A DNA stretch of 64,000 nt, from the NCBI GenBank assembly GCA_001724265.1, contig MEDY01000066.1, positions 1-64,000 on the forward strand, in the 5' to 3' direction. Source of the DNA: Rhizaria sp. SCN 62-66. Taxonomy: Eukaryota. Made by a program: the position numbers and the translations under genes. Shown piece by piece: positions 1-48,176 of this stretch. Under the pieces are notes generated by a model. It did not search any database, was not told where the DNA came from, and saw nothing but the letters and a program-made list of their open reading frames with translations. How positions within the stretch are numbered: the first letter of the stretch is position 1; each line of letters starts with the position of its first letter.

Positions 1-86
<86 letters not shown>

Positions 87-87
87 C
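1..87 (+). repeat. (AAC)29 microsatellite encoding poly-Asn, truncated by window start
   Basis: Perfect AAC repeat at bases 1-87, in the frame of the first gene. Confidence 0.95.
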
Positions 88-971
88 GCGAACGAGGCGG
101 ACAACAACGACAACGGCCGCCACGGTCACGCCCTTCTGGACTCTGACACCGACGACGAAAACAGCAACAACAATGGCAGCAACGATGCCGAGAACGACAG
201 CGTTAGCGGAAGTGAGACCGAGGACAGCGGCAGCAGTAGTGACAGCAGCGTCGACCTTGACGACCCCAGCATTCCCGGCTCCGAGTTCAACCGCAGCGAC
301 CCCTCCGTGGCCAAAGCCTGGCTCGGCTCCTACCCGCTTGGCGCGCGCGGCAGCACGGCGCGCGACCGCGCCAAGCTGGGCTTGCGCGGCGACCTGCTGT
401 GGGGCGTTCGGCACCGCGTCGGCCGCGGCGACCAGCGGCGCTACATCCACCAGCTCCCGTCGGTGCCGGGAGTAGTGGAGACGCTCTTCGCTCGCCGCGG
501 CGGGGTGCTCACGTCCTACCGCAGGGTGTCCACACTGGAGGACGGCGATGCGGGCCAGGACGATGTGTTGATGGTGGCTGCCAAGGGGCCGTTAACGCCT
601 GCGCCCGTGACAACGAAGAACTGCGTGATCCCTAATCCGGTCACGAATGGCATCTTCACCGAAAAGAGCAGCGCCCGTAAAGCGCGCGCGTCTGCAAACG
701 CGGGTGCGTACAGCACCGAGACCGCCGCCGCGTCGACTGTGCTGGTCGCCGCAGTGCTGTCCGCCCAGTCGCTGACTTGCCTCCGCTCTGCCTCCTCGCT
801 CGGCACCCTCGGCACGGCGCGCAACGCGGTCTACCACGAGCAGCGCGACACGGCGCGCGCCGTCAAGTCCGCGCTGCAGCGGCTGTGCCCGCGCAGGCGC
901 GCGCGGCGCGAGATCGAGAGGGCGGCGGCTGCCCATATGGCACATGTCATGGTGAACCCAAAAACGGGCGT

Positions 972-1002
<31 letters not shown>

Positions 1003-4000
1003 AATGCTGCTAGGGCTCGGCACGATACCGATGATACTGACTGCGACGCCGACTGCGAGTGCTTGAGGGGCGCGGGCGCTCTGCTCAAAGGCCTCAGCTT
1101 CGCGCCCGAGTGGATCACTACTGCGGCCACGCTGCCCTCGGCTTTTAGCACGATTGCTGCGGCGGCGAGCGCTCGCGACTGCGACTGCGAGCTGCAACAG
1201 CGTCAGCAATAGCAACACACTGCAGGCAGTGAACACGCTTCTGGCGCTGCGATCGACTATGAACGTCTTGCGAGCGACCGCGGGCGCGTGCTGAGTGACC
1301 GTGAGCGCGCTCGTCGCCGCAACACCCTGCTCCTGAACAAGCTTGAGACGCGCGACATGGCGCTGTCGCTGTTCGAGCCGTGGGTGAACGCGGTGGACGG
1401 CACGGTCACACTGGGCAGGCCTGTGGAGGCCGTGCTGACCGGCGTCAAAACCAAGTCGACGGGTCGGGGAGCGCGCGCTGATGCGACTACTGCTGCTGCT
1501 GAAGCCGGCAGCGCCGGCGACAGCGCTGGCGTAGATGGCGGCGACGGCGACCAGGCCGAGGGCGACGACGAGGAAACTACAGCTGCACATGTTCGTGCAG
1601 ATGCGAATGCTCGTGAAACCGCCGCGTTCGTCGAGTCCGTTAACGCTGCGGCCGCGTATTTTGTCTCGGCGACCTCAGCAGTGACGGAGACGTGCTCGCG
1701 CGCTTCGGTCCCAACGACAGTCACTGCGGCGGTCAAGGCCGCCGAGGCGAGCTGCAGCGGCCGTGCTGGCGGCGCTGCGCCGCCCGGCGCGGCGCAGTGG
1801 CCGGTGCTCGCTGATGACTTGCCAACGGTCACTCTTGTACCCGCGTCCGCCGCAACTGTTTCTTCACCTCGTAGTGACCGAGTCGACGCCGAAGCGGAGC
1901 TGCCCACGGCTTGTTGCAGCGGTGCGGCGCGGCGGCCGCTGCATTGGGTGCCGCGGTTGCCCCACTTGGAGACACGCGTGACGGTTGTGGTGCCGTGCAC
2001 GGCCCCGATTGAAGACAACGCGGCCATATCCGCCTCTTCTGCAGTCAAACGCGACCCCACGAGTATCTGCACGGACGTGCAACAGCACCCGTCGATCGTG
2101 CTCTCGCGTGCGATCACTGGCGCCACGGAGCACGATAACACCAGCAAAGAGACTATCGCACGTATCGCCCACTCTTTCACCAGCGATGGCTTTACCGCCG
2201 GCGCCGCCCCTGCCGCCCCCGTTGCGCTGGCAACCTTTTCCGTCCCCGGTCCTGCGCTGTTCGCCGCGCGCTGCACCCGCGCGCGCGTCTCGACGCTCTA
2301 CACTCGTGCACACGCATACGTGATTGCGCGCCGCTCCCTCTGGGCGCTGCTGCCTGACAGCGCCGACCTAGTGCTCTCCATCACCGCTTTCTCCAGCATA
2401 GGGATGACGGTGCTGCAGTTCTTCCCGCCCTGGACGCTGTATCCCGTGGCGCTGGTGGCGCTCCATTTGGCCGTGGTGACGCCGCTGGCAGCGATGCTCG
2501 CGACCTGGTGCGAGAGTGCCTTCGTTCAGCGCGCGGACGCGGAGAGCATCGACGCATTTGTGAAGAACCCGTCAAAGAAAGCGATTCTAGCCAGCTACCG
2601 CACCAATCCCCACAATATGAAGCATCCGCCTCCTGCGAGTGCTCGTGTGAATGTGCATCCTGCAAACAACAACAACAACAACAACAATAATAATAATAAC
2701 AATAATAACAACGTCCGTGCTGCTCATCGGCATCGCAAACGCGTAACACCTGCTACTGGCAGCGCCGAGGACAACAACAACAACGACGACGATGACAGCT
2801 CCGCGTCCCCCTACACTGCGGCCGTGCGCCTGGCGCTGGCTCCGGTCAAGCTGCGCGCTGTGCACGCCATCGCGAACGAGCGCGCGCGGCCGGTCCTCGG
2901 CGCGCTGGTGCCCGCGCTCTTCGTCACAACCTCTTGGACCATCAAGAGGGCCTTCGCGGCGTCGCCGCTACGCGCGCTGCTCGTGGCCGTGTACGCGGCG
3001 ACGCAGATTGCGATGTTGGGGATGGCCACGGGGCACTGGGCGATGACGGTGAACAGGTACTTTTACAAAACAGAAAGCCCACTTCATTTAACAACTGATT
3101 TTGTTCTTATTCAACCAACTAGTTTTCATGCGAAATAGCCTGCCCGAATTCCCATACTCTTTTGACATTGTACTGCAATCTCCCTCACCCCCTCATCTCT
3201 CACTGACATTGACATCGTGTTGCTTGTAGGGCATTTGGCTGTGCATATGCGCTGTTCGGCATTTTGGCGGCACGCGAGCTACCAATCTATCTCCATTACA
3301 AGCGCAACAAGGCCGCGCGCGACGCCGCACTCATCAGCGACGCCATGGCCGCCATCGAAGGCAACATTGCCGCGTCCCCGCCGCGCCTGTCCGACGAGTC
3401 CCTGGGCGACACAAGCTTCACACTGTACCACCGCGTCATGTTCTTCAAGCCGCTGTTCCTCTCGCTGCTGCTCAGCACTGCGCTACTGCACGCCAAACTC
3501 GCGCCCTCGGTGGCGCTCGGCGTGAGCGTGCTCGCGGCGCTCGCGCCCGCATTCCTCACCGCGCTGGTCGTATGCGTCGTATGCCTCGTCATCTGCTGCA
3601 GGCACAAGACGGTCAGCAACCCGACTGATGGGGCTCGTGGCTACGGCACGAACTTCTATCTCGTCAGTGCTATCTTTGCCGCAAGCGGCTCCTTTGCGAT
3701 CTGTCTCGCGCTGCTCTCCCTCCGCGGCATTATCGCCCCTGCGCTGGACGGCGTCGCCGCCGTGCCTGCGGTCATCCCCTACACTGTGCGTGACTTCGTC
3801 CACTCGGTTGCCTGGCTGCCGCGCGCAGTGCTCTCGCTCAACTTCACACTCGCTGATTTCAAGCACGCGATGTACTCGCCCGTGGCGCTGATCAGGGCTA
3901 TCTGGGGCTGGGACACCGAGTTTTACACTCTGAGTATTGCAAATGCTGCCGCCGCTGCAGCTGCGTCTGCTGCAGCCACAACCGCGGCCAATGTCACTGC

Positions 4001-4469
4001 CGCCACCACCGCCATTGCTGCGGCGGCGGCGACTGCTGCGGCGACGGATGTTGCTGTCGCCGTCACACACACGACCGCTATCACTGCTGGTGCTGCTGCT
4101 ACTGCCGCGAACGCCACGACTGCTGCCGTCACCGCCAATGCGGCTGCGGCTACAACTGCGGCGGGTTTCGCGCTGGATCCATCGGCGCCGTGGCTGCTGC
4201 GCTGGGCCTTATACTCCCTCCCCATCGGGCTTTTTAAGGGGCTCTGGGCGCGCGTGGTGCCCTCTTCGTGGTGGGCGCTGTGGGGCCGCAACCTGCTCAC
4301 GCCGCACCCGGCCGTGGCGTACATCGTGCTGGCGGGTGCGACGCACTGGATCCTGGCCTACTCGCTCAACCTCCACACGTCGAAGCCCAAGACGAACCCT
4401 GTGACGGCCGTCAAGGGGGTCATGTGGGAGATCTTGGACCTGTTTGCGCTCGCGTTTCCGCGCAAGTGA
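1..4469 (+). CDS. 5'-partial large hypothetical multi-pass membrane protein (>1430 aa) with one in-frame TAG at 1210-1212
   Basis: Frame 1 is open from base 1 (poly-Asn, then acidic Ser/Asp tract) to 3056 apart from TAG 1210-1212. ORFs 307..1212 and 1288..3138 share this frame. Intron 3057-3229 (GTACT...TAG) joins in phase to ORF 3264..4469, which ends in TGA. Several hydrophobic segments lie in the C-terminal half. No family recognised. Confidence 0.75.
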
Positions 4470-9481: not shown

Positions 9482-12400
9482 TTACATGTAAAACGACTTC
9501 TCCCAGAGCTCGGGGTGTAGGCCCTCGCTCCAAACCTCTGGCTCGCCGTTCTTGCCCGCAACCGCCGCGGCCGCCGCGAGCGCCGCGGCGCCCGACCAGG
9601 CGCCGCCGCCGATGGAGGAGTTGTTCATCGCGCGCTTCGAGATGGCGTCGACAGTATACTTGCGCGAGAGGTACTTCATCTGCGTGCACATCGAGTGCGC
9701 GTGTTGGGCCACGCCGGGCACGGCGCCCGTCTTGGCAATGCGCTGCGTGTTGTGCGCGAGGTAGTACGTCAGTTCCTGGATCTCGTCCATCGTCAGGCCA
9801 CCCTGCTGCGGCTGCTGCGGCTGCCCGGCCGTTGCGCCGTCTTGCTCCGAAATCAAGCCGTCGCCCTCGTTGACAAGGACGGTGTAGCGCACCGGCCGCG
9901 GCGTACCGCGGTGCGCGGCGTGCGCCAGGAGGTAGAACTCGTTGCCTGTGAGCGCGGTGACGCTGGGCGAGTCGATGACCGTGCCTGGCACGGGCGCGTG
10001 CATCGTGGGGTGGGTGGTGTAGCAAGACGGGTGCGACAGCGGCACGCTATAAGGAACGCTGCTGGCTTCACCAGTCGAAGCAGTACGAGCACTGGAACGA
10101 GCGCCAGAGCCAGGGGTTGTCGTTTTCTTTGTCGTCGTTTCTGTTTTGATGTCACTGCTGATGTTAGAATCGTCACCAGCAGCGCTGTCATTGCTGTTTT
10201 GCTTGTTGACGTGCAACTCTGCAACGACCTCGGGATCAGGCCTTTGTCCGAACCCAGCAACACCGCCGCTACCCGCGCCAGTTTTGCCGCCCTTGCCGCC
10301 GGGAAGCTCCTTGGGCCAGAAGCGCACGCTGTGGCGTTTGGTGCACAGCACGACAAGGATCTTGGGGTTGTACGCCGGGTCCAGACTGCGGCAGGCCATC
10401 TTGATCGCCGCCGTCTCCTGCTGCGTCACCTTGTGCTCCTCATGTTCGTTGATGCCGTCGCGGAAAAAGAGGATGCGCTCGGGGATGCGCCCCGTCTGCA
10501 GCAGGAACTGCGTGATGTGCCTGCGCACAGCGAACATAAGGTGCTCGACCGGCGTCACCTCGCACTCGACGCCCGTCTGCAGCGTGATGCCCGCGTATCG
10601 CGTCGCCTCCAGGTCGCGGCTGCCTATCACGCACGCGTGCGAGTACTCGTTCACCGGCAGCGCGCCCGCGCCGCCGGCCGCGGAGCCCTGCGCCTGTGCG
10701 TGGCTGCCGCGGATTTTGTGGTGCCGCAACGGGTGGTCCACGTCCAGCCCCAGCACCAGCGACGGGGCCTCGAGCATCACCTTGGGCAGCGAGAAGCGGA
10801 AGTTGACGCCTCCCAGCTTGGTATTGAGTTTGAGCACAAGGTTGTGGTAGTATGCCGGCGGCAACGGCTCGCGCGAGAGCATCTTGTCGCTCGCGATGCC
10901 CTGCGTCACGACGCCGTAGCGCGTGAGGGCGAGGCGCTTGAGCGCGTCGTACAGCGGGTCGTTGCGCGGTGACGAGCAGAGGAGGAAGACGACATCTGCG
11001 CGCGCGGCCGGGCGCATCATGACGCGGTGCAGCGTCTCCTCCAGCTGCGTCGGGTTGCGAACCGTAAGCACGTCGCGCAGCGGCGCGATCGACAGGCCCA
11101 AGTCCGCCGCCGTCGACATGAGCTGCGCGAAGAAGGCCTTGATCACGGCGGGCTGCACGGGGGCCGCGAGCAGGAACAGCGGCGCCGCGACGGGGACCGG
11201 GGCCACGAGCCGGCGCGAGCGGGCCGGCCACGCGCCGAGGACCGGGATCGTCTCGGTGCACACGGCCGCCGCCGTGGGGGCCAGCGTTGGAACCTGCTGC
11301 GTTGCAAATGCGCTCGCAGAGTCCTTAGACGCGTTCGCGGCATTGGCGGTGAAGGCGAGAGTGTGGGGGCCGAAGTTGAGCAAGCTGTCATTGGTAACGC
11401 GAGCGATCTTGTTGCTGATGTCTTTGGAGCTCATGTTGATGTCGTCATCGTCATCATCAGAGTCCACCATCGCAGTACCCTTGCTGCCGCGAGCGCGCGC
11501 CTTCGAGCCAGAGTCAGCACTCGCGTCACCGTAGCCGTGGTCAGAGTGAACGCAGTCAGCCGCAGTGACGATGAGCCGTGCGGGGACCGTGTTAGCGCAC
11601 TCGCTGGAGGTGTACAGCCGTTCCACGACGCTGTTGTCGAGCGGGTCAACTGTGCTCAGCGCGGCGCCGGCAGGCGGGAACATGCCGTGGCCCGCGTTGT
11701 GACCGTAAGAGCCCGCGCTCACGCTCCCGTTTGGGGGGAAGTGCAGCGACTGCGCGAGGACGGGGCAATTCGGATCACAGCAGAGAGACTTTGCTGCGTG
11801 GTCTAACGGGTCCGGCTTGACTAAGAACCTGTAGGGGTCGCGATCATCATCAGCATCAACATCAGCACTCGCAGAAGCGCTCGTACTCGTCGCACTCTTA
11901 CTCTTAGCGGGCTTATTCGTGCTCGAGTTCATGTCAGTGATGTTGCTGTCATTGTTTAGCACAGCAGTGATGTGCTTTTTGGTCGTTGAAACAGCGTCAC
12001 TCGGTGTCTTGGCTGCCTCTGACAGCACCATCATCTCACGGCGCGCTGCGACAGCAACGCTGTTGTCGGCGTCACTCTTCGCGTTCGCGTTGTTCTCGGT
12101 GCTGTTGTAGTACTGGCTAAGAACGACAGCATCCTCAGCACGAATAATACCCGCAGAGAGCTTCTTCTCGCGCTTGCCTTTCGCCTTACTAGTCGCAGCA
12201 ACGGTCTTAGCCGCGGTCGTGGCTGCGGCGGTGCTCGCGCCACGACGCTTCTTCGCATTCTTAGACTTCGCATCACTGTCACTCCCACTGCCGCTGCCAC
12301 TATCACTACCGCTGTCATCAGCGGCGTTCGCGCGAGCACCACCGCTCTTGGCGATGTTGCCTGCGGCGGTGATGGCGTGGGGAGCCAGTGCCGCGGTCTT

Positions 12401-15400
12401 GCTGCCAACCCAGGCCTTGGCCACGGCGGAGGGCGCGCCCCTGACGAGCCCGGTGTGCGGCGCCGTGAACACCGACGGCGGCGGCAGCACGCGCGCGGTG
12501 ACGGTGAGTAGCTCGGGCACCGGCGCGAACAGAGCCGGGTCCCACAGACTCGCGGGTGCCGCGAACACGGTGCCGTCACTGCCGACTACGACGTTAGCAT
12601 TGCTCCCATCAGACGCGGTCTTAGTCGCAGTGAGCGAGACAATGTTTTGCACGAGCGTCCTCTGCTGTAGCGCGGGCAAGCACGCGATCTCCTTGTGCAG
12701 AAGCTTGTCCTTAAGCGAGTAGCCGGCCGTGTACATCTGGTTGGGCAGCACGTTGCAGACCTCGATCGGCAGCACCGTGTGCTCGCCCGCTGCCACGCAG
12801 GGCCAGTCCGCGGCGTGCGCGAGCTCGACCCCGTACTTGGTGCTGTAGAACGCGGCAACGGAGACAGGGGGCTTCTCGCTACCCATGCTGAGCATGTGAG
12901 CCGCCGCCGTGGCCGCGACGCCAGTGAGCTCGTATTCGCGCGCGCCGCGGTGCGTGGTCACGACGCGCAGCCCGCGGAGAGCGCGGGCGAGCACGCGCAT
13001 CGCGTCAGCGTCGCCGGCGTTCAGCACCGCGGGGTTCGCCGCGGGGCCGTCGTTGCTCCAGGCCTTATGATGCGAATTGTTGTTGTTGTTGTTGTTGTTG
13101 TTGCGCAGAGGAAGTGAGGCCGAGATCGCCGCAATATACGACGACAAAGACACCGGCGCGGCAACCGCCATGGTCTTGACGCTGGCCGAAACGAGCGCGC
13201 CCTGCGCCGTGGCGCGCGCCGAAAGGAACACGCCCGTGCTCGCAAGCGCGGCGCCGGAGGGCAGGTACTGGAGCGAGGTGAAGCGCGGGAAGACATAGGG
13301 CGCCATGTGCACCAGCGCGCCCAAGCCGGAACTGCTTACGCCCGCCGCGGGGGCACTAAGACTGGAGCCGGGCAGCAGAGCGCGCGGGATGGAGCCCGCA
13401 AAGGTGGTGACTGGCTGCAGCGTGACCATGGAGCGCGCGAAGGCATTGAACATGCGGATGATGTGCTTCGGTTCGCGCGGGTATGCGTCTATACCGGCGC
13501 TGACGCCGGCGCTGCTCGCGGACAGCGCGCTCGCCGCGGCTGCGGCCCCGGCGCCCTTGTTGTAAGCGTTGGGAAACAACGCGTTCACAGCGGCATTGGC
13601 GCTGCTGCTGGCGCCAGCTGTGTTCGCGAGACTGAGCGTGAGATTGGCCGCCGCGGCGGTGGTGGCCGCCATGGCGCGCGTGGCGCGGCCCAGCGCCGCC
13701 GCCGCCTCGGCCGCGTGCGCCGCGACCGCGGAGCCGGGGGGGGCGGAGTGGTCCGCCGCGGTGTAGGCGAACCAGGCCTGGCGAGCGGCGATGTACTGCG
13801 AAAGTAGAGCGAGCGGGACCGCGCCGGGCACGGGGTCAAGCGTCACTGTCACGGCGTTCTCGGCCAAGTACTCCGGGTCGCTCTCGCCGCAAGGCTCCGG
13901 GTCTGCTGCTGCGGCTGCAAGAGCAGTTGACTTGCCGGAACCCTTGGCCTTGGGTAACAGCGTGTCACGAGAGGAAGATGACGAAGCTGTTGCGATAAGC
14001 GAGGTCGGCAGCACCTTGACGACTTGCGGCCATGTCATGTCCGCTGGCAGAGGACAAACCGTGGAATAGGCTAGCCCGACGCCGTCAAACGCCATGCGCA
14101 GCGCGGCCAGCCCCTCTCCACTTTTGGTGCCCTCTCCACTGCGCGCAGTCGTGACTGCGCGCATGAAGACCTCTGCGCGGTGCGACGCGATAGCCGACGG
14201 GGGGTCAAACGTCACAGTGAACATCGACACGTGGCCCTGCGCGGCCGTTTTGATCAGGAAAGAGTTGGCGACCAGGTCGACGGGGTAGCCGCGCGAGCCG
14301 GGGGCCAGCCGGGGCGCGGCGGCGACGGGGAGCAGCGGCACGGGCGGCAGGACCGTCGGCGTGTAGACGGGGCAGTAGCCGGCGTCGAACGACTGCGTAA
14401 GCGACGGCTCTGAACACGACGACGAAGAGCTCGCACTCGCACTCTCGTTGGAACTGGCACCCTTGTTTGCGTCAAGGTAAGGGTAGGGTCCGAAGCCGAA
14501 GCTCGTGTGCGCGCTGTTGGCGGCGACCGCCGCCACCGCCCGCTGCGCGCCGTCAAGCGCCTTGGCGTCCATGGGCGGCAGATTCGCCTCGCTGGCGAGC
14601 TTGCTGCGCGTGTAGGGCGCGGGGGCGCGCCGGTCGTGTCCGGCGGGCAGCGGGGGCACGACTGCGCGCATGGGCACGACCGTCACCACGCCGGTCCTCG
14701 TCTCGCTGCGACTGGCGCCGCTGAGACCGCTCTTAGTCTCGTCTGTGACCTGATTAGCCTTGGGCACGAGCGCGACGACGGTGTGCTTCCGCCCGTGGCT
14801 ACTGATGAACTTGTGCGCGGCGCGCTGATCGGGCGCCTGCGACAGCGCTGCGGCGTGCGCCGCCGCGTCGGCTGCCAGCGCGCGCGACTGCAGCGAAGTC
14901 AGGTCGCGCTCGATGTGGCCCTGCGCGGGCCGCTGCAGCACCGAGGCGGGGACGTCGCGCGCGGCGCTCAGACCCGTCGCGCCGGCGGGATTTGCACTGG
15001 GGCCGGGGACAAGAGGGTTCTTCAGAGTGCTCATCAAGCCGCATGGAGCAACGCCTGACTCAGAAGCCGCCGCGCCATTGTCAGTCGCAGTTTGACTGGG
15101 CAGGAGCAGCGGCGCCGGCGTGGGGGGCACAGCGACGAGGGCGGTGTTGGCAACGCGGGCGGCCAGCGAGCGCAGCGCGGCCTGGCTGGGTGCCGAGTGC
15201 CGAGCTGCAGCCGCCGCAGTTGCAGTTGCAGTGGCAGTGGCAGTGGCAGTTGTAGTGTTAGCGCGAAGGGTAGAGCTCGCGACAGCAGTCGAGCTGGGCT
15301 GGGGCCGAGCCACAAACTGAGCCAGCGAACTGGGGGGCGCGTGTGAGCTCATGCTGGCAGCGTTTTTGCCTGAAGTCAATGTGGAAGTCGAACTCGAGCT

Positions 15401-15844
15401 CGAGCTAGCAGCAGCAGTCGGCTTGGTGCTGGGAGCAGCAGGCTTCACACTCGTGCTCGCCGCAGTGCTGCTCGCTGCGGGGACACTGATGGCGGGCGTA
15501 GATGCACCAAATAAAGCTTGATACCTCGACGCCGGCTGCGGCGCAGTCGCGGTCAGAGCGCCAGCACTGGGTGCTGCACTTGCTATCTTGGCGCTCGATT
15601 TAGACGTCGCAGTCGCCGCTTTCTTCGCGGCATGCGTGGCCCCAGCGTCAACAGCACCGGCCTTAACAGCGGTGCCGGCACTCTTCACGTTGGTGCTCGT
15701 GCTGACCCTTGACGTCGCGGCAGCAGTCAGTGTCGAGGTGGTGGCAGCAGCCTTGGCCAAGCGCGCGGCGCGGGCGCGGGCCTGGGCCGCCGCGAAGGCG
15801 TCGTCATCGTCGGAGCTCGAGCACGACGAGGATAAAGAAGACAT
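9482..15844 (-). CDS. AGO: Argonaute-family protein (PAZ + MID + PIWI), about 2120 aa with large low-complexity insertions
   Basis: PAZ (LRGLRVVTTH...SVAAFYSTKYGVEL...LPIEVCNV), linker ARVLPPP, MID (YDALKR...GVVTQGI...NLVLKLNTKLGGVN) and PIWI (LGLDVDH, PERILFFRDG, KRHSVRF, PGTVID, EFYLLAH, GTPRP, terminal FYM). First ATG at 15844, no intron needed, stop TAA. Confidence 0.93.
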   Translation of the reverse strand: MSSLSSSCSSSDDDDAFAAAQARARAARLAKAAATTSTLTAAATSRVSTSTNVKSAGTAVKAGAVDAGATHAAKKAATATSKSSAKIASAAPSAGALTATAPQPASRYQALFGASTPAISVPAASSTAASTSVKPAAPSTKPTAAASSSSSSTSTLTSGKNAASMSSHAPPSSLAQFVARPQPSSTAVASSTLRANTTTATATATATATAAAAARHSAPSQAALRSLAARVANTALVAVPPTPAPLLLPSQTATDNGAAASESGVAPCGLMSTLKNPLVPGPSANPAGATGLSAARDVPASVLQRPAQGHIERDLTSLQSRALAADAAAHAAALSQAPDQRAAHKFISSHGRKHTVVALVPKANQVTDETKSGLSGASRSETRTGVVTVVPMRAVVPPLPAGHDRRAPAPYTRSKLASEANLPPMDAKALDGAQRAVAAVAANSAHTSFGFGPYPYLDANKGASSNESASASSSSSCSEPSLTQSFDAGYCPVYTPTVLPPVPLLPVAAAPRLAPGSRGYPVDLVANSFLIKTAAQGHVSMFTVTFDPPSAIASHRAEVFMRAVTTARSGEGTKSGEGLAALRMAFDGVGLAYSTVCPLPADMTWPQVVKVLPTSLIATASSSSSRDTLLPKAKGSGKSTALAAAAADPEPCGESDPEYLAENAVTVTLDPVPGAVPLALLSQYIAARQAWFAYTAADHSAPPGSAVAAHAAEAAAALGRATRAMAATTAAAANLTLSLANTAGASSSANAAVNALFPNAYNKGAGAAAAASALSASSAGVSAGIDAYPREPKHIIRMFNAFARSMVTLQPVTTFAGSIPRALLPGSSLSAPAAGVSSSGLGALVHMAPYVFPRFTSLQYLPSGAALASTGVFLSARATAQGALVSASVKTMAVAAPVSLSSYIAAISASLPLRNNNNNNNNNSHHKAWSNDGPAANPAVLNAGDADAMRVLARALRGLRVVTTHRGAREYELTGVAATAAAHMLSMGSEKPPVSVAAFYSTKYGVELAHAADWPCVAAGEHTVLPIEVCNVLPNQMYTAGYSLKDKLLHKEIACLPALQQRTLVQNIVSLTATKTASDGSNANVVVGSDGTVFAAPASLWDPALFAPVPELLTVTARVLPPPSVFTAPHTGLVRGAPSAVAKAWVGSKTAALAPHAITAAGNIAKSGGARANAADDSGSDSGSGSGSDSDAKSKNAKKRRGASTAAATTAAKTVAATSKAKGKREKKLSAGIIRAEDAVVLSQYYNSTENNANAKSDADNSVAVAARREMMVLSEAAKTPSDAVSTTKKHITAVLNNDSNITDMNSSTNKPAKSKSATSTSASASADVDADDDRDPYRFLVKPDPLDHAAKSLCCDPNCPVLAQSLHFPPNGSVSAGSYGHNAGHGMFPPAGAALSTVDPLDNSVVERLYTSSECANTVPARLIVTAADCVHSDHGYGDASADSGSKARARGSKGTAMVDSDDDDDDINMSSKDISNKIARVTNDSLLNFGPHTLAFTANAANASKDSASAFATQQVPTLAPTAAAVCTETIPVLGAWPARSRRLVAPVPVAAPLFLLAAPVQPAVIKAFFAQLMSTAADLGLSIAPLRDVLTVRNPTQLEETLHRVMMRPAARADVVFLLCSSPRNDPLYDALKRLALTRYGVVTQGIASDKMLSREPLPPAYYHNLVLKLNTKLGGVNFRFSLPKVMLEAPSLVLGLDVDHPLRHHKIRGSHAQAQGSAAGGAGALPVNEYSHACVIGSRDLEATRYAGITLQTGVECEVTPVEHLMFAVRRHITQFLLQTGRIPERILFFRDGINEHEEHKVTQQETAAIKMACRSLDPAYNPKILVVLCTKRHSVRFWPKELPGGKGGKTGAGSGGVAGFGQRPDPEVVAELHVNKQNSNDSAAGDDSNISSDIKTETTTKKTTTPGSGARSSARTASTGEASSVPYSVPLSHPSCYTTHPTMHAPVPGTVIDSPSVTALTGNEFYLLAHAAHRGTPRPVRYTVLVNEGDGLISEQDGATAGQPQQPQQGGLTMDEIQELTYYLAHNTQRIAKTGAVPGVAQHAHSMCTQMKYLSRKYTVDAISKRAMNNSSIGGGAWSGAAALAAAAAVAGKNGEPEVWSEGLHPELWEKSFYM

Positions 15845-16781
15845 GACGCGCAAGATAATACTCTGATAGATGACTGTCTGTGTTTCTGAGTTTGTGGTTG
15901 TCAAAGAAGGTATTGGAGAGGATTACGGATGAGTTAGCACCAGGAGAGTGGGCGAGAGAAATCAAGCAGTACTTTGTGCATCAGAAATAAGTCCAATAGC
16001 AAATACGCCTTGCTAACACTACAGACGCGTGTTGTGTTAATATAGTTGCCTGGCAATATATCCATGGAATGCGACATTAGGCTGTAGATAGGCCGCGCGC
16101 AAGAGTTGATGATAGTGCGAAAGGCACTCGATCCCAGCCGATGTTTCGAGAAGCGTGGCTCATCGAAAGAAATACTGCAGAAAGTATAATTACAATGCAA
16201 AGTGAATAAATGACCTTAAAATAGGATAACACTGTTGCAGAACAAAGCAACGATGCTGCGTTGAGATATCCATATTTTCCGTACGTGGTACGACAGCACG
16301 AGCAAGCAGAAGCGGCGCAACGAGAGTCACGCCTAAGACGAATAAAGCAGGCGGAACGACTTAAAGATGTGTTAAAATTCAACAACTTGTTTATTATGAA
16401 TACGACATGTGCGTTCGCAACCCACTTGACACTCATTCAGTGAACAAATGAACCCCGTTGACGCGGAATATCACATGTAAAGTGAATAACAACATGAATC
16501 AGTCTTGCATACAGTGTTTGTTGTGATTTCGAACGGAAAATAGAAAACAAAGCAAGTCAATGAACGAAAAAAAGAAAAAGAAATAGAGACAAAACCAAAT
16601 CAAAAGAAATGCAACGACACCAAAGAGCGTGGGCTTTAAAACAAAGCTTAGTCGAGCCTTGCTTCGCATCGCCAAACTTCGTGAATCAGTCATCGGAAAA
16701 ACGCACTCGGACAGCACTCACTGACAGTTGGCTGACACAGTGAGCTCTCATGGACGTTGTTGCGCGGTCGCCAAAGCGCGC

Positions 16782-24386: not shown

Positions 24387-26120
24387 TTAGAAGAGGCCCT
24401 TCTGCTTCTTGAGCTCAGCCTGGCGCCATTGCTGCATGGCGTTGAAGGCGACCTTAGTCAGGCCGAATACGGCCTCGAAGTCGGCGTCGGTGAGGCGCTG
24501 CTCCTTCTTCGAGCGGTCCACCGAGGGAGGCAGGTGCGCGTTGTACTTGAGCTGCTCGTGGGTGTAGAACTGCTGCTCGGGCAGCTTGGGCACGTTGTCC
24601 TCGGCGTCCTCCTCGTTCGGCGGGGTGCCGTTGCTGGGGGACTTAGACAGAACATCCTAAAAAACAAGGGTGAACATAAAGCAAGATTGTGAGACAAGGC
24701 TGACGAAAATAAAGTCTTATGAATTGAAAATAAAACATAATATAAACGATATCTAAAAGATACACATCGCACTGAAATAAACTTTGAAATAGAGAATATA
24801 AATGTATATCTCCGAAAGTCGGATTTAGACAACGGTAGATGGACATACCTGGCGGACCTTGACGACGTCCGAGCCACCGTGGGCGACGCTCTTGCGCGGC
24901 TGCGACGACGGCGCCGGCGCCGCGGGCTCGCCCTCGGCCGTGGCAGGAGCCCCGGACGCGGCGGCGGCGAGGGACGCGCGGGCGGCGGGCGCGCAGCCGC
25001 CGCAGTAGAAGCCCTCACCGACGCGGGAGCAGCCGGACTGGGCGAGCGCGGTCTTGCAGCCGGCGCACGTCCAGCATTGCTGGTGGAAGAAGAAGTCGAG
25101 CACCTGAAGGTACTCGCCGTCGATGACCTTGTCGCACTGCTTGCAGAACTTGCCGAACTTCTTGACGAAGTGGTCGGGGCAGTAGATGTTGCCCTCGTGG
25201 AGGTGGAACGCCTCGGTCTCCATCACGTGGCCGTCGAAGTCGCACGTGAAGCACTCGGGGTGGTAGTGCCGGTCCTTGACGACCGAGACCTTGCCGGTGA
25301 TATTCTTGGTGCACTTGACGCAGCGCACGGCGAGCTCGCTCTCGTAGCAGCCGTCGCACACGGGGTTCTGGTTGTGGATGCGGTACTGCGACGACTTGAG
25401 CGGCTGTGTGCACATCGAGCACACGAAGTGATCCGGGTGGTACGAGTTGCCGTTGGCGTTGACGTAGGAGCCGATAATCACGGCCTTGCAGTGCGCGCAC
25501 TTGGGGTTGAAGGTCGCGTAGTAATCCTTCTCGCAGTAGAACTTGCCGTCCTTCTCCAGGAACCCCACGCCCGCAAGCGAGGAGGAGCACGTGCAGCACT
25601 TAAAGCACGTGTCGTGGAAGTCCTTGCCCTTGGCCACCAGCGACGACGTCGTGCCGTCGAGCGGCTTGGAGCAGCCGTGGCACAGGGGCTCGCCATTGCC
25701 GCCGCTGCTCGAGCTCACCACTTTCGCGGCGGGAGCCGCGGACGACGAGGACGAGGAGGAAGACGCGGATGCGCTGTTGTTGACTGCGACGTTGAGCTTG
25801 TTGATTGCGTTGGCGAGGTCGGCGTCGTTCTTAGACGTCGAAGACGACGACGAGGACGCAGCGGCGGGCGCGGCGGCGGCGGCAGGGGCAGCGGTGGGCG
25901 CGGCGGTAGCGGCAGCGGCCGGGGGCGGAGGCAGGTCATCATCGGGGGTCAGGTAGTCAACGGGGACCCAGCCGGAAGCGCCGTCCATCTCAGCGAGAGC
26001 CCATCCGCTGTCGTTGACGCTCGAGACGAGAACCTTGTCGCCGATGCGGATCGACATCTCGGTGTCGTCGGCGGCCTCGTGATGGTACGAGACGGTCGCG
26101 GTGTAGGGCACGGACGCCAT
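24387..26120 (-). CDS. SH3 + four LIM domains + villin headpiece actin-binding protein (abLIM-like)
   Basis: Exons 26120-24849 and 24656-24387. N-terminal SH3 (EMSIRIGD...SGW...GWVPVDYL), four CxxC...HxxC/HFxC LIM units, and headpiece (EQRLTDADFEAVFG...WRQAELKKQKGLF). Stop TAA. Confidence 0.9.
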
Positions 26121-26639
26121 GCTGAAGACACGAAGACGCAACGCAAAGCAAAGCAACGCGACGCAAAGCAGACCGGGGGAGAGTGGCAGCGGCGAGAGAG
26201 AGAGGAAGTGGGGGGGTGAGGGCGGATTGGCAATGGTGGGGTTTGGGAGTAACGGTGTTTGGGAAGAGGGTGTGTGGTGGGAGAGCATGCGCAAGCGAAG
26301 CGGATACAGAACGCAATGTATGTGCCACATAACGTTCAAGGATATAATGTGGGCTTGAGAGACAAAAGCGAAGCTTTAGGATGCGGTTTCAACGTTGCAA
26401 AGAGTCGAAGGCGGGGAGAAAGGGCTGACGAGGGGCGAGGCAAAAGTAGCACATTCTGGAGGTATAGCTTACCTCAGAACGGCACCGTGACGCAACACCT
26501 GCATAATACTTCTCATGAACAGTCTGTGCAAGGAATATCATGTCCTGAATACAGCCTTAGTACGCGCAAAATTGCCTGCTTTTCTGATATCTGGGCGCGT
26601 GTGTGTGGCAGGCTTCCATCACCCATCCACTTGCAGCCT

Positions 26640-42735: not shown

Positions 42736-45700
42736 TTAGTCATCAAAGTCGCTGAAGCTGCCGCTGCTAAAGCTCCCCGTGGCAAACCCGGTAACGTAGT
42801 CGTCGTCATCGTCGTCGACAGGCGTGCGCCACTCGCCGCCCACCCATTCGCGGTCGCCGGCCTCCGCCTCATTGGCCGCGCCCACGGCCGCACTCGCATG
42901 CGAACTCGCATTCACGGGCGCAGCGGCAGAGGCGGCGTCCACAGCGGTACGGCCGGCATCGGCAGTGACAGCAGCGTTGTTGCTGCTCAGGACAGCAGAG
43001 GCAGAGTCAACGGTGGCAGAAGTGAGTGAGCTTGCCACATTGCCGCCGCCGCTGAAGCCCTTGGCGGCGGCAGCGGTGGCGGCGTCGATGGCGCTTGAGG
43101 CAGCAGCCCCGGCGGCGACGGCGCCGGCAACGGCGCCAAGGCCAGGGACAGCAGCCGCAGCAGCAGCGGCGGGGGCGGGGGCAGCGACAACGGCAATAGG
43201 CGCAGCGGCGGCAGAGGCAGAGGCGAGTGTGACCGGCGCCGCGACGGCCGCCACGTAAGCCAGGCGTGCAAACAGCCCGCTGCCGACACCGCTGCCGCCG
43301 CCGCTGCTGACGTTGCCCCGGACCGCGGCGGTGGTGGAGTTGACTGCGCCGCTGACTGTGCCGAGTGCGTCAGCCAACATGTCCCGCAGACGCTTGTCGC
43401 CGAAACGGCCGTGCACGTAGCTAGTCGGGGCAGTCGCATGAGCATTGACATTCGCACTCGAGCTGGCGTTGTTGTTCCTCGATTGTTGTTGCTGCAGCTG
43501 TTGCTGAGAAACAAAGTTAGCACCCGCATTAGCGTTGTTGTTGCTGTTGTTGTCGAGAGAATTATTGATGTTGTTGATGTACGTGTTCAACGCGGGGTAG
43601 TCGCGTCTAAGGGCACTTACACGGGTAAGTACCTCTTTAGACGCCGGCAGCACCTTGCCCATGACACTGCTCACCGTGTCGTCCATCGACTTGCGCGCGT
43701 GAGTCATCGCTGCTGTATTATTGCGCACAGTCGCGCTCACGGTTGCGCTCACGGTCTCGGCCAGGGCTTTGGCGGCGGCGGTCACCGCGGTGGCGCCAAC
43801 GGTGGGGCTACCGGCAGCGGGATGGCCGTGCTGACTCTGGCTCTGAATCTGGCTCTGGCTCTGGTGAGCAGGGCTTGAGTGACTGTGGCCAGCAAAGTGA
43901 CCGTGAGCAGAGTGACCGTGAGCGTGGTGATTGAGCACATGGACAGAATGGCCAGGCGCAACATTGTGACTATGACCGTGATTATTACTCGCGTGCACAC
44001 TATTGTTCACGTTTGCAGCAACCATGGCGGGAATCGCCGTCGCCACCGCGTCCTCCCCCTTAGCCATCGCAGCCACGGCCTTGCCCTTTGCGTACAGCAC
44101 CCAGGTCCGGATCTTGGGCGGGCACGTCGCGGGGTAGCTACCCATATTCCCCGGGGCACTTAGACTGTGAGGGGCGTTCATGCTCGCACCAGCAGCTGCC
44201 GCAGCCGTGCCGTTATCAGGAGCGCTAACGCTGGCAGCGTTGCCGTGGGTGGCGTGGGTGACTGTGACCGCGTGAGAGGACAGCAAGCGCTCGGTAGCAG
44301 CGGCAACGGCGTCTGTGTCAACAGGATCGGCACGCGCAGTCGCAGAAGCAGCAGCGACAACAGAGGCGGCGCCGGCACGACTGCTATCGAAAACAGCAGC
44401 AGGAGCAGTGGTAGCCGACTGATGCTCCGTGTTGATGTAGCCGCAAGCACTGTTGCTCTCAGCGGTGGCAACGCCACTGTTTTGACTCACGACGACATCG
44501 CTGTTGCGCAGCACAAACGCATCGGTCACGCTTGCGCTCTCGTGGGCACTCCCATTCGCGCTGTCAGAGTGACCGTGGGCGTAGGCGTGGGCGTGGGCGC
44601 ACGCACCGTTGCCATGACTTGTGTTGTAGCCGGTGCCACTAACGACAGCCTTCGCAGCCTGTGTGGCTTGCACAGCGGCAGCACCAGCAGCACCAGAAGC
44701 AGCACCAGCAGCAGCAGCTGTCGTGGTGTTGTTGCGGGGACGGCGCCGCACGGCCGAGGCCGCCGTGAAGGCCAGCTTGGCTGTGGCAGCCGCAGCCGCC
44801 TTGGCGCGCGAGATCGGGCAGCACAGTGCGCCTGCGGCGGCGGCGGCGGCGCTGCGGCGGCGGGCCACCACGGCCGCCGCGGCGGAGGCGGCGGAGGCAG
44901 CGAAAGTGGCGTCACTGTAGCCAGCGCCAGAGCTAGACGTCGCAGAGTCAGATCTGAGAGACGCGTAAGTGGGGGGAAGTAAGGGGGTCGCGTTGCACAT
45001 GCCCGTGGCGTGGTAAGTGCAGTCGGGACTTACATTCGCGCCTGTGGGGTTATTGTAGTGACTGCTCGCATTCTTGGTGCGAGTGCAGCCGTTGTTGTTA
45101 TTGTTGCTGTTGTTGTTGTTGTTGTGACTCGTGTAGTGGTGGCGGTACTTGTCCTGGCCCCGGTCGAAGAAGGCGCCGATCGAGCCCCGGTGGCGGCTGT
45201 AGAAGGCGGCAAACGCGGCCGGCAGCGCGGCCCGGGCCTTGCTGCGGAGCTTGCTCAGCACGTGGGCAGATAGCGACAGCGACGCGTAGGGGTCGGCATC
45301 CGCGGCGGCGGCGACGGGAGAGTGACCGTGGGCAGCAGAGTGACTGTGGGCAGCAGTGACGACGGGGTGACTGTGGGTGATCGGGTGACTGTGAGACACC
45401 GCAGCAAGAGCAACATCACTCTGACTCTGACTCTGAATCTGACTGTGAGCGGACGAGTCAGTCTCATAAGCTGCTGCTGCAACAACAGCAGGAGCGCTCG
45501 GAGTATCAGCCGGAGCTTGCCGGGTGATACTCACACAGTCACTGTGGTGCCCAGTGCTCAGCTCGCTGCTCACGGTCACTTGTGCAGTGCTGTTGACAGA
45601 CTCGGGCGCACTCACAGCGACCGTGGGCAGAGCAGCGACCGTGGGCACAGTCGCGGTGACCGTGGGCAGGTGAGATGTGACTGTGGGCAGCACAGCAGCG

Positions 45701-47370
45701 TTGGTATTCCCGACACCAGCATCACTGACAACCGTGTTACCAGTGCTAGTCTCTGTGCCGCTGCCATTGCTGTCCGTATTGATGATGTTTTTGTTGATGT
45801 TATTGATCTCACTTGGTTGACTCTGGCTGTTGTAGCAGCCGCAGCGCTCCTTATCACACTTGCCGCCACTACGAGCCTGAGCCGGAGACTGCGACTGAGA
45901 CTGGCTCTGGCTCTGTGCTTGAGGCTGCGACTGGGACTGGGACTGCTGTCCATTCGCACCCGCACCCGCGATATTACTGTTACTGCCCGCGTTGCTGCTC
46001 TTAGCGAGCGCACTGGTGGGCGGCAGCGGCGACAGCAGACAGTACCCGCGCGGCCGCTCAGTAAGCTTGTCGTGCGGCAGCATCGCGGCCCACAGCCGCG
46101 GCACACTCACCCAGAACGAGGGGTACTTAAAGCGCGCCACGTCTAGCACAAGCACCGAGTCAGAGGCGGCGTGGTAGCCCGCCAGTGGTGACATATGGCC
46201 GTCGCCGGTCTGCCCCAGCGCCTTGCGCGAGAAGGACACGACGAGGGCCGCCTTGAGCCCGCCACGGGCAGGGTTACCGTGCGGCGCCGAGGCGAACGCA
46301 GGGTTGATCACGGCCGGGTTCGAGGCGACCTGGTGCAGCAGCGCGCGGAAGTGGTCGATCGAGGTCAGGTCGGCGCGGAAGTCCTGCGCAAGGACCCCGT
46401 GGCAGCGCGAGAGGGAGGAGAACTGGCGGAATGTCATCCCCTCGTCCCGGATCACCGACATCGGCGTGCAGCACTCGAGCATTTCCTCGGAGAACCAACG
46501 CCACGGCAGCTTCCAGTTGCGACCAGGGTCGACGCCGAGCGCGTTGAGACACATGGTGAGCGTCGTGATGGCGCAGTAAGCGGGCTCGGCCTGCGTGGTG
46601 AACTGCTCTGCGAGCGGGAAGTAGCACTCCATGGTGCCGTCTGCAAGCGCCTCGGTAAAGAGCCGCCGGCCCTGTGGTGAGTTGAACGGGATCAGGTCCG
46701 CGGGCAGGTCGCGGCGGTAGAAGGACCAGTCAGCGGGCGGCTGCCATTGCGGGCTTGCGGCCAGCCCGCAGCCGCTGGCAGTCACCGGCGTCGCCGTCCC
46801 GCCCGCGCACGCGCGCGCAAGGTGCGACGAGACGGCGCGGGGCGCGCGCGGCGTGCTCGCGCGCGTGGGGGACGCAAGAACGCCAGGACTGGTGCTAGAG
46901 CTGACGCTGTGTGAGCTGACGCTGACGAGGGGCACGGAGGGCATAGAAGCAGAGGCCGAAGACGCCTGGGCAGGTGATGCGGGCGAAACTGTCGTCGTGG
47001 CTGAGACTGGGGGGGCTGCTGAGGCAGTCGCAGAGGAAACGGAAACAATCGCTGACGGGGATTCAGTTGTTGTTGCTGTTGTGAGATTGGTATTGGAGCT
47101 GTTACTGGGAGCTGATGAGCAAAACGCAGCACAGGGGGCGCTCGCCACCGCGGCCGTTGCGAGGTTCGTGTTGTTGTGCGCACTGTTGATACTTCCACTG
47201 TGCAGAGAGCGGAGGCGCAGCGCGACCTGTGCCGCATGCTGGAGCTGTTGCAGCTGCTGCAACTGCTGCTGGTGCTCCATTGCGAGCTCCCTCAGCAGCT
47301 GCTGCGTGTGGGGCGCCGAGGCGGCCGTGTTTAAGACTCGGGAGGCAGATCGGTGACAACGTGCCAGCAT
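42736..47370 (-). CDS. PCS: Phytochelatin synthase (papain-like), 1544 aa with long low-complexity His-rich tail
   Basis: SFYRR.LP, FTTQAEPAYC (catalytic Cys), LNALGVDPGR.WK.PWRWFSEEML.CC, LGQTGDGHMSPL (His) and VLVLDVARFKYP.FWV (Asp), domain at about 46050-46730. Single ORF, stop TAA. Confidence 0.92.
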   Translation of the reverse strand: MLARCHRSASRVLNTAASAPHTQQLLRELAMEHQQQLQQLQQLQHAAQVALRLRSLHSGSINSAHNNTNLATAAVASAPCAAFCSSAPSNSSNTNLTTATTTESPSAIVSVSSATASAAPPVSATTTVSPASPAQASSASASMPSVPLVSVSSHSVSSSTSPGVLASPTRASTPRAPRAVSSHLARACAGGTATPVTASGCGLAASPQWQPPADWSFYRRDLPADLIPFNSPQGRRLFTEALADGTMECYFPLAEQFTTQAEPAYCAITTLTMCLNALGVDPGRNWKLPWRWFSEEMLECCTPMSVIRDEGMTFRQFSSLSRCHGVLAQDFRADLTSIDHFRALLHQVASNPAVINPAFASAPHGNPARGGLKAALVVSFSRKALGQTGDGHMSPLAGYHAASDSVLVLDVARFKYPSFWVSVPRLWAAMLPHDKLTERPRGYCLLSPLPPTSALAKSSNAGSNSNIAGAGANGQQSQSQSQPQAQSQSQSQSQSPAQARSGGKCDKERCGCYNSQSQPSEINNINKNIINTDSNGSGTETSTGNTVVSDAGVGNTNAAVLPTVTSHLPTVTATVPTVAALPTVAVSAPESVNSTAQVTVSSELSTGHHSDCVSITRQAPADTPSAPAVVAAAAYETDSSAHSQIQSQSQSDVALAAVSHSHPITHSHPVVTAAHSHSAAHGHSPVAAAADADPYASLSLSAHVLSKLRSKARAALPAAFAAFYSRHRGSIGAFFDRGQDKYRHHYTSHNNNNNSNNNNNGCTRTKNASSHYNNPTGANVSPDCTYHATGMCNATPLLPPTYASLRSDSATSSSGAGYSDATFAASAASAAAAVVARRRSAAAAAAGALCCPISRAKAAAAATAKLAFTAASAVRRRPRNNTTTAAAAGAASGAAGAAAVQATQAAKAVVSGTGYNTSHGNGACAHAHAYAHGHSDSANGSAHESASVTDAFVLRNSDVVVSQNSGVATAESNSACGYINTEHQSATTAPAAVFDSSRAGAASVVAAASATARADPVDTDAVAAATERLLSSHAVTVTHATHGNAASVSAPDNGTAAAAAGASMNAPHSLSAPGNMGSYPATCPPKIRTWVLYAKGKAVAAMAKGEDAVATAIPAMVAANVNNSVHASNNHGHSHNVAPGHSVHVLNHHAHGHSAHGHFAGHSHSSPAHQSQSQIQSQSQHGHPAAGSPTVGATAVTAAAKALAETVSATVSATVRNNTAAMTHARKSMDDTVSSVMGKVLPASKEVLTRVSALRRDYPALNTYINNINNSLDNNSNNNANAGANFVSQQQLQQQQSRNNNASSSANVNAHATAPTSYVHGRFGDKRLRDMLADALGTVSGAVNSTTAAVRGNVSSGGGSGVGSGLFARLAYVAAVAAPVTLASASAAAAPIAVVAAPAPAAAAAAAVPGLGAVAGAVAAGAAASSAIDAATAAAAKGFSGGGNVASSLTSATVDSASAVLSSNNAAVTADAGRTAVDAASAAAPVNASSHASAAVGAANEAEAGDREWVGGEWRTPVDDDDDDYVTGFATGSFSSGSFSDFDD

Positions 47371-48176
47371 TATCTGCGCGAAATAGACGTCAAGAAAAGA
47401 AAAAGTGGGGAAATTGGGGGTTAGGGGGGACGTAAGAGGGCAAGCGGGTGGGAGAGCAAAGTCCGAGGAGGGCCTAACGGAGTCTCGCGAAGAGACCTTG
47501 AAACCACAGGCGGACAGACAATTTGTTCCTCTATACTTGTATTATAAAGGATAAACGCGTGACTCATTAGGTTTAATTCGGGATCGCAAACTAAATCGCT
47601 ATTCTGCGAACGGAAGTCCACTTCTAGCCCGATTTTTGAAACGCGTCGGACTCTGGCAGACCGGCGTGGAACCAGCCACGGCCGACACAGCGCTCCACAC
47701 GAAACCGCTATTTCAAGATATAGCAAGAAAGTGATCAGTCATGACAGCGTAACGAGCGGGAATGTTGAGAAAATACAAATTCTTATCTTTATAGCATACA
47801 CTGAACTAATTCTCCGATTATCTTTGTGTTTGTTTTCGGACGCCGAGATTACACGTCCCTCGTCCTGCTCAGCAACACGCGGACACGATACACTGCAAAC
47901 CAGCATGCGACTGCGACTCAGAGCGCCAGCTGTTGCGCTAGCCCTCACAACCAGCAGCCGCGTGGTAGGTGTGCGTGGCGTGCCATGCTGTTGTTGTGTT
48001 GTCGCTTTAGCTCGTCATATAACAGCTAGTATCAGCGTCAAATCGAGTCATTCGTCCAATCTCTCAGTTCGCCAGGACGGATGGTTATATAAGCTCCGGC
48101 AGTCACATTTCACTCGCGCTCCTGAATCAACGCACAAAAACGCGTTATATATGTCGTGAATCAAACAAAACGCGCT

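Follow-up and report, generated by a model that had tools for sequence, protein, structure and literature searches.

An in-frame TAG in the first gene

The stretch of DNA under study (64,000 nucleotides, hereafter called the window; G000:C66:1-64000) opens within a long reading frame interrupted by a single TAG, and the question raised by this locus is whether the triplet marks one dead gene or a sense codon of an altered nuclear code. The TAG (1210-1212, plus strand; codon 404) stands in the context GAG CTG CAA CAG CGT CAG CAA TAG CAA CAC ACT and is the sole stop in frame 1 of a long exon (1-3056, plus strand; one TAG, no TAA or TGA) that is open at the contig end; the original prediction had likewise named it the sole interruption of this frame and had read the site as ELQQRQQ*QHT. 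The start of the gene is missing because the contig opens inside an AAC repeat (1-87). The exon is followed by a predicted GT..AG intron of 173 nt (3057-3229, plus strand; GC 0.40, relative to 0.65-0.66 on the two sides of the TAG) and by a final exon with hydrophobic segments (3230-4469, plus strand) ending in TGA (4467-4469). Joining over the intron in silico kept the frame and gave a coding sequence of 1,431 codons in which the TAG is codon 404 and the TGA stands at the end, in line with the earlier claim that coding-like sequence continues past the TAG and splices into the final exon. Neither a Pfam family nor a homologue was found for this gene in the searches made.

A CAG at the site, which would speak against recoding, was not present in the DNA contigs that cover it: the TAG was kept in a contig of run X3 (1014-1531; 0 differences), which belongs to a study other than that of the possible source run, and in one of run X4 (1014-1593), which represents a slightly different strain. 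Runs holding at least half of the window's words were labelled as bioreactor or wastewater metagenomes, one being without a label, and runs with a small share of these words were left out. No long piece across 1210 was listed for X6 or for the RNA run X5; the X5 pieces (482-962, 1572-2061 and 3433-3664), a putative transcript, lie outside the site, and the joint over intron 3057-3229 was absent from the contigs of this run. The substitutions between strains were synonymous in 12 of 16 cases in the gene as a whole, in 9 of 11 within the exon 1-3056 and in 9 of 12 on the 3' side of the TAG (P ~4e-4 if 25% are expected), and the sole indel was of 3 nt. The frame therefore appears to be selected on both sides of the TAG. 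A splice acceptor at the TAG was rejected, as the triplet lies in GC-rich coding sequence with no donor motif within 500 nt upstream.

Stop-codon use across the genome

The original prediction also pointed to a second gene on the opposite strand with the same defect in the same Gln context. The in-frame TAG was found there (57625-62943, minus strand; a frame of 1,772 codons ending in TAA at 57625-57627), but there are four TAGs rather than one, and a single one of the four lies within a Gln run, namely the one in a Gln/Lys run (62104-62106). The others were located outside any Gln run (61606-61608), in a Gln/Ser/Glu/Pro stretch (59758-59760) and after a Gln-Pro stretch (59698-59700), all on the minus strand.

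Stop-codon use was quantified with a codon model trained on the assembly (G000; eukaryotic, 34.9 Mb in 714 contigs, of which ~1 Mb was read). Among 142,643 confidently coding codons within 810,696 bases, 23 TAG, one TAA and one TGA were internal; three of these 23 TAGs were in loci fetched for a flagged TAG and one was in the window. A looser filter (932,979 bases) gave 38 TAG, 5 TAA and 4 TGA, and the loosest one gave 68, 33 and 55, respectively, which is noisy. Where no donor motif lay close by, predicted gene ends (n = 107) were distributed as 63 TAA, 41 TGA and 3 TAG, after 23 further ends with a donor-like motif (13, 7 and 3, respectively) had been set aside as intron starts. All three TAG ends are doubtful, one having coding-like sequence beyond it, one a weak score, and one an upstream sequence that is not exon-like. 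The contrast between the inside of genes (23 TAG to 2 other stops) and their ends (3 to 104) has a P of ~2e-20, and TAG is therefore taken to be a rare sense codon, used ~1.6 times per 10,000 codons. Internal TAA (one, relative to 63 ends) did not show the sense use known from UAR=Gln (table 6), UAR=Glu and Oligohymenophorea sp. PL0344 codes. The base following the 23 internal TAGs varied (C10, G5, A4, T4), so that no fixed readthrough context was apparent, nor was a stop context for readthrough common to the sites, as 20 of 38 TAG sites had no Gln within five residues. A first codon-score screen and a GC3 pattern listing of TAGs over the genome were swamped by antisense frames and were discarded.

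In-frame TAGs were found in many intact genes, including conserved domains. Eleven of 142 kinase matches were flagged for a TAG (5 exonic, 4 splice acceptors and 2 intronic), and three new PF07714 matches comprised two acceptor-like TAGs and one exonic TAG. The two flagged Ras matches (of 54) resolved into two splice acceptors and one exonic TAG, which was left out of the score. The TAG-containing DEAD (1 of 43) and kinesin (1 of 54) matches were both rejected as splice acceptors, and none of 20 ABC domain matches contained a TAG. TAA or TGA triplets inside six domain matches examined were all intronic (matches on C178, C6, C68, C64 and C317 were left out). Taken with the tRNA and release factor described below, the 23 internal TAGs and the near absence of TAG from gene ends (3 of 107) give good support to a rule that holds throughout the genome, as opposed to a single dead gene, and a genome-wide reassignment of UAG is very likely.

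Release factor eRF1

A single eRF1 gene was found (G000:C63; the other match to the family looks like Pelota), and it contains an in-frame TAG of its own (L031:1594-1596, minus strand) at codon 107, the counterpart of human E107. A JGI metagenome contig was the same as this locus over 1,626 bases, TAG included, and is perhaps not independent. The protein differs from its homologues in the GTS, TASNIKS and YxCxxxF motifs: T32S, G57S, L124M and K130Q occurred in none of 117 homologues, and M34V and T58K in one of 117, the 84%-identical relative, while E55, NIKS, S70, Y125, C127 and F131 were unchanged. Thr32 bonds the G of UAG and is replaced by Gly in Iotanema (PMC5304391); T32A reduces release at both UAA and UAG, and T58 contacts the RNA (PMC3384315). 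Based on these positions, we infer that T32S, G57S and T58K could remove UAG reading and spare UAA. The 84%-identical JGI eRF1 (P0004) has T58K and M34V, but it has kept T32 and has Val at position 107; going by its sequence, it may come from a related organism that uses this code or a preceding stage of it. As one TAG would fall in a 435-codon gene by chance with a probability of ~7% at the mean rate, release-factor feedback through the TAG in eRF1 is raised here as a possibility, for which the autoregulation of plant eRF1 (PMC5397192) provides an analogy.

A CUA-anticodon tRNA gene with a tRNA-Glu body

Pattern searching gave one tRNA gene with a CUA anticodon (G000:C84:76020 region; L035:1489-1561, minus strand). 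The pattern by itself proves little, because a reversed-pattern control gave 7 matches; the cloverleaf was confirmed by ARAGORN and by Rfam model RF00005 (58 bits, cut-off 29; 63 of 506 tRNA candidates were scored in this search), and a T run follows on the 3' side. Free-energy folding returned the acceptor and anticodon stems only (z -1.5). The surroundings of the gene are AT-rich and flanked by two genes of host type, one of which encodes an FH2 domain; a kinase and a kinesin are found on the same contig. Wider patterns recovered the genome's own Gln and Glu tRNA genes, including at least five tRNA-Gln(CTG) genes relative to the single CUA gene, and gave no second CUA gene and no UUA gene in three pattern searches of a possibly incomplete assembly. 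Nor was a long-arm or intron-bearing CUA tRNA seen by eye among 24 pattern matches.

The CUA tRNA shared 47 of 73 positions with the genome's own tRNA-Glu(CTC) and 40 of 73 with tRNA-Glu(TTC), relative to at most 36 of 73 with tRNA-Gln. Its first five acceptor pairs are those of both own tRNA-Glu, while the own tRNA-Gln begin with G1-C72 and have U73. It also has U11-A24, U13-G22 with A46, and no residue 47, all of which are Glu elements in E. coli (PMC9976931); the D-stem pairs and the short loop are likewise present in the own tRNA-Gln. Counting against a Glu identity, C36 is a strong GluRS determinant in E. coli, where U1-A72 and U35 are GlnRS elements (PMC9976931). Judged by the identities and acceptor pairs given above, the CUA tRNA has the body of a tRNA-Glu, and is not the tRNA-Gln derivative that a UAG=Gln code would lead one to expect; the tRNA-Glu(CUA) typical of UAR=Glu codes is present at the sequence level, and their tRNA-Glu(UUA) was not found. 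The label 'Pyl' assigned by ARAGORN reflects nothing but the anticodon, the body being of Glu type.

The D and T arms were also scanned against GTDB and IMG/VR (bacterial and phage scope, with eukaryotic collections outside it), where 120 of 120 GTDB matches among those listed and 63 of 63 IMG/VR matches had Glu anticodons (TTC or CTC). The best identity to the CUA tRNA among the matches listed was 56 of 73, with 37 positions fixed by the pattern, relative to 47 for the own tRNA-Glu. These bacterial-type arms provide a lead to a possible origin by transfer.

The amino acid specified by UAG

Glutamate was favoured over Gln because the CUA tRNA tips the balance, and UAG is probably read mainly as Glu, with UAA and UGA remaining stops. 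Under this reading, TAG makes up ~0.4% of Glu codons. Aligned homologues gave a divided picture. At the TAG of eRF1 the column held E106, D10, V1 and Q0 (n = 117; Val in the closest relative, 84%), and at that of UBE2J1 it held D35, S12, E8, G6 and Q0 (66 rows with a residue, 72 aligned). A kinase hinge column held E236, D45 and Q6 (n = 312), or E37, D5 and Q0 (n = 45) after a Thr gatekeeper; this column is weaker than scored because the kinase is RAF-like and the 312 rows are mostly CaMK-like, and five PDB alignments printed for it gave Ser (KSR, four) and Gln (TNNI3K). Both of the genome's own paralogues have Asp at the L139 site. At the kinase site in L111, 17 orthologues of at least 50% identity included Q6, K4 and E1, and the L134 site aligns with a Gln of human NEK1 in a broad column (L42, K40, E39, Q18; n = 281). 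Summed over the six columns for which at least 17 homologues were available, the scores (ln) were E -9.7, D -15.3, K -18.4, Q -20.1, S -21.1 and L -22.7. The gap between Glu and Gln was 10.5 ln units, or 6.3 without eRF1, 7.3 without the hinge and 3.2 without both; two of the six columns leaned towards Gln and two were without any Gln. Columns left out as uninformative were those of zf-PARP (Ser/Gly in human PARP1), an ASCC3-like helicase (Lys in human Brr2), L138 (Thr in the paralogue), L137 (in an insert) and PTEN C2 (no PDB match).

Codon context did not decide the residue. Flanks of TAG contained 18% Gln, relative to 24% for CAG and 4% for GAG, and a context mixture model gave a CAG-like share of 0.6 and a GAG-like share of 0 (0.3 to 1.0 within 2 ln units). 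Rough expectations for the CAG-like share, based on codon counts plus a transition bias that was assumed, were ~0.55 if UAG is Glu and ~0.85 if it is Gln, and the data fit both. A Gln-rich context does not fix the amino acid either, since C-to-T change of CAG in weakly constrained poly-Gln would give the same pattern.

The meaning Gln had been implied by the original prediction, and would make this the code of NCBI table 15, of the Iotanema/Hartmannula type, working either through a tRNA-Gln(CUA) missing from the assembly or through GlnRS charging of the Glu-type CUA tRNA. The Gln-rich flanks, six Gln among the 17 orthologues of L111, and the Gln residues of NEK1 and of the TNNI3K hinge all fit this reading, and the one SSU rDNA found in the assembly is of heterolobosean type. 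Panek et al. are said to have reported in 2025 that UAG specifies Gln in the heterolobosean Dactylomonas venusta. Gln is moreover the commonest published outcome (PMC11687900). Against it stand the Gln-free columns of eRF1 (0 of 117) and UBE2J1 (0 of 66) and the lack of any Gln-type CUA gene in searches whose pattern style recovered the own Gln genes. The use of TAG within Gln tracts also disagrees, as TAG (4) was 100-fold rarer there than CAA (406) and near in number to GAA (5), with CGG at 20. With the sole CUA tRNA of Glu type and the most conserved columns holding Glu or Asp without Gln, this reading is unlikely and gives way to Glu as the better one.

Mixed decoding, in which the CUA tRNA gives Glu and near-cognate tRNA-Gln or mischarging gives a sizeable share of Gln in Gln-rich contexts, is improbable as well. 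It would account for the columns being divided between Glu-like and Gln-like ones and for the one CUA gene set against at least five tRNA-Gln(CTG) genes, and the CAA-TAG-CAA of site 1210 is a context that promotes Gln at yeast stops (PMC13192750). However, QXQ readthrough at UAG in yeast amounts to ~3% (PMC13192750), which is small beside a cognate tRNA, and the 20 of 38 TAG sites that have no Gln nearby fall outside such a context.

Under the standard code, the TAGs would be nonsense alleles, leaky stops, splice acceptors or errors of assembly, while the tRNA would be silent or would suppress weakly. This reading could draw on the many flagged domain TAGs that are acceptors or intronic, on the rarity of TAG and on the RNA pieces that miss 1210. 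It is very unlikely given that a TAG occupies codon 107 in the sole eRF1 gene detected (repeated in the metagenome contig), and given the opposed proportions of TAG inside genes and at their ends, the varied +4 base, the purifying selection downstream of 1210, and the GC-rich coding sequence without a donor motif upstream of it. Another residue (Leu as in the rhizarian exLh, Ser, Asp or Lys) is hardly credible, for despite Val in the closest eRF1 relative and the second and third places of D and K in the summed score, L and S lie 11-13 ln units below E and the CUA matches inspected by eye included no long-arm or intron-bearing tRNA.

A possible mechanism

If UAG is mainly Glu, the CUA tRNA would be transcribed and would receive Glu from the cytosolic GluRS, its C34 would pair with UAG and not with UAA, and the T32S, G57S and T58K changes would weaken the recognition of UAG by eRF1. 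The cost of relying on a single tRNA gene, and of whatever termination persists at UAG, would keep TAG rare. In that case, most TAGs would be new mutations, either of CAG in poly-Gln (Gln to Glu) or of GAG (silent), and that at 1210 most likely arose from a CAG of a short Gln run. There, the ribosome would insert Glu in the Gln run and proceed to the final exon; some Gln is plausible at this site because CAA-UAG-CAA favours Gln insertion at yeast stops, and contexts of this kind may be where TAG is best tolerated. In a more specific scenario, this would be an early UAG=Glu code with one CUA tRNA, perhaps from a bacterium, phage or organelle and fitted with a host-type acceptor stem, an eRF1 that still partly stops at UAG, and the TAG of eRF1 acting as a feedback valve; that all of these hold together is doubtful.

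Comparison with known codes

To our knowledge, a new meaning for one of UAA and UAG is nearly always accompanied by a new meaning for the other. UAG-only nuclear reassignments have been described in Iotanema spirale (Gln) and the rhizarian exLh (Leu) (PMC5304391), and in phyllopharyngean ciliates (Leu, Gln) and Scotinosphaera (Ser) (PMC11687900). The present code shares with them a sense UAG, UAA and UGA as stops and a CUA tRNA, and its eRF1 is altered at T32 as in I. spirale (T32S here, T32G there). It differs in the residue, which is probably Glu, in a GC-rich genome, and in the scarcity of TAG, at ~1.6 per 10,000 codons as against 78-91% of genes in phyllopharyngean ciliates (PMC11687900). 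Among codes with Glu, Oligohymenophorea sp. PL0344 has UAG=Glu, UAA=Lys and ten CUA tRNA genes derived from tRNA-Glu (PMC10553269); the UAG=Glu reading (probable here) and a CUA tRNA of the tRNA-Glu kind are common to both, whereas in the present genome UAA serves as the main stop, a single CUA gene takes the place of ten, no UUA tRNA was found, and the window has introns of 150-300 nt and a GC content of ~59%. Blastocrithidia uses UAR=Glu and UGA=Trp, with UAG read by tRNA-Glu(CUA) (PMC12153298), and peritrich ciliates use UAR=Glu (cited in PMC11687900); in contrast, UAA and UGA are dedicated stops here, S70 of eRF1 is unchanged, and there is no AT pressure. In yeast, stop readthrough in a QXQ context is a leak of a few percent under the standard code (PMC13192750); site 1210 has this context in common, whereas in the present genome the gene ends have lost TAG and there is a cognate tRNA.

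The code thus belongs to the class of UAG-only stop-to-sense nuclear reassignments, with a CUA tRNA that is not of Gln type and a UAA that is not used as in UAR=Glu codes. In the available text of the sources cited above, UAG reassigned on its own in a nuclear code means Leu, Gln or Ser, and each report of Glu comes with a recoded UAA as well. A search of mostly non-subscription literature, with the supplements of code papers outside its scope, gave no report of UAG=Glu with UAA as a stop, and the accessible parts of PMC6133090, bioRxiv 850610, PMC12574857 and PMC13180982 contain nothing on the code. A code pairing UAG=Glu with stops at UAA and UGA would be one not described before. If true, it adds a missing state (UAG=Glu, UAA=stop) that is a plausible first step to the peritrich, Blastocrithidia and PL0344 codes, and AT pressure cannot explain the reassignment because the genome is GC-rich. 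In contrast to the first two UAG-only cases, the tRNA gene is available here together with eRF1, so that how eRF1 drops UAG and keeps UAA and UGA is directly testable (T32S, G57S, T58K), which is of relevance for amber suppression in eukaryotic cells. The locus is also a warning that Gln-rich context can mislead code inference, and standard-code annotation truncates the TAG-bearing genes, eRF1 among them.

Lineage and other features of the genome

The only SSU rDNA found (contig C706; L034:1501-5945) lies on a repeat-rich contig of 19.3 kb, and no host-type gene was seen in the 10.4 kb of it that was read. Four Rfam group I introns are present in this SSU gene, and the first insertion contains a 176-codon ORF, which we take to resemble a His-Cys homing endonuclease. 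Helices 17 and 18 of this rRNA are separated by an additional hairpin that is a close match to helix 17_1 of Multisulcus, a marker of Tetramitia within Heterolobosea (PMC12328842). C706 is plasmid-like and may be co-binned with the GC-rich nuclear contigs, to which no link was seen. In the assembly DNA read (~1 Mb) there was no ubiquitin or dynein, and the Rab1A-type motif was absent from the 18 Rab/Ras-type loci examined for it.

Many single stop-free frames of more than 2,000-3,300 codons, rich in Ala, Gln, Asn and His tracts, were present in loci L064-L103 and L154-L173, and ORF callers are misled because antisense frames are also long and open. Within the window, an Argonaute gene (9482-15922, minus strand; 2,146 codons, with PAZ and Piwi domains) is swollen by low-complexity insertions, and a frame of 1,601 codons (42736-47541, minus strand) combines a phytochelatin synthase domain with very long low-complexity extensions. 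A further gene (24400-26375, minus strand) encodes an SH3 domain and four LIM domains, and its last exon looks by eye like a villin headpiece.
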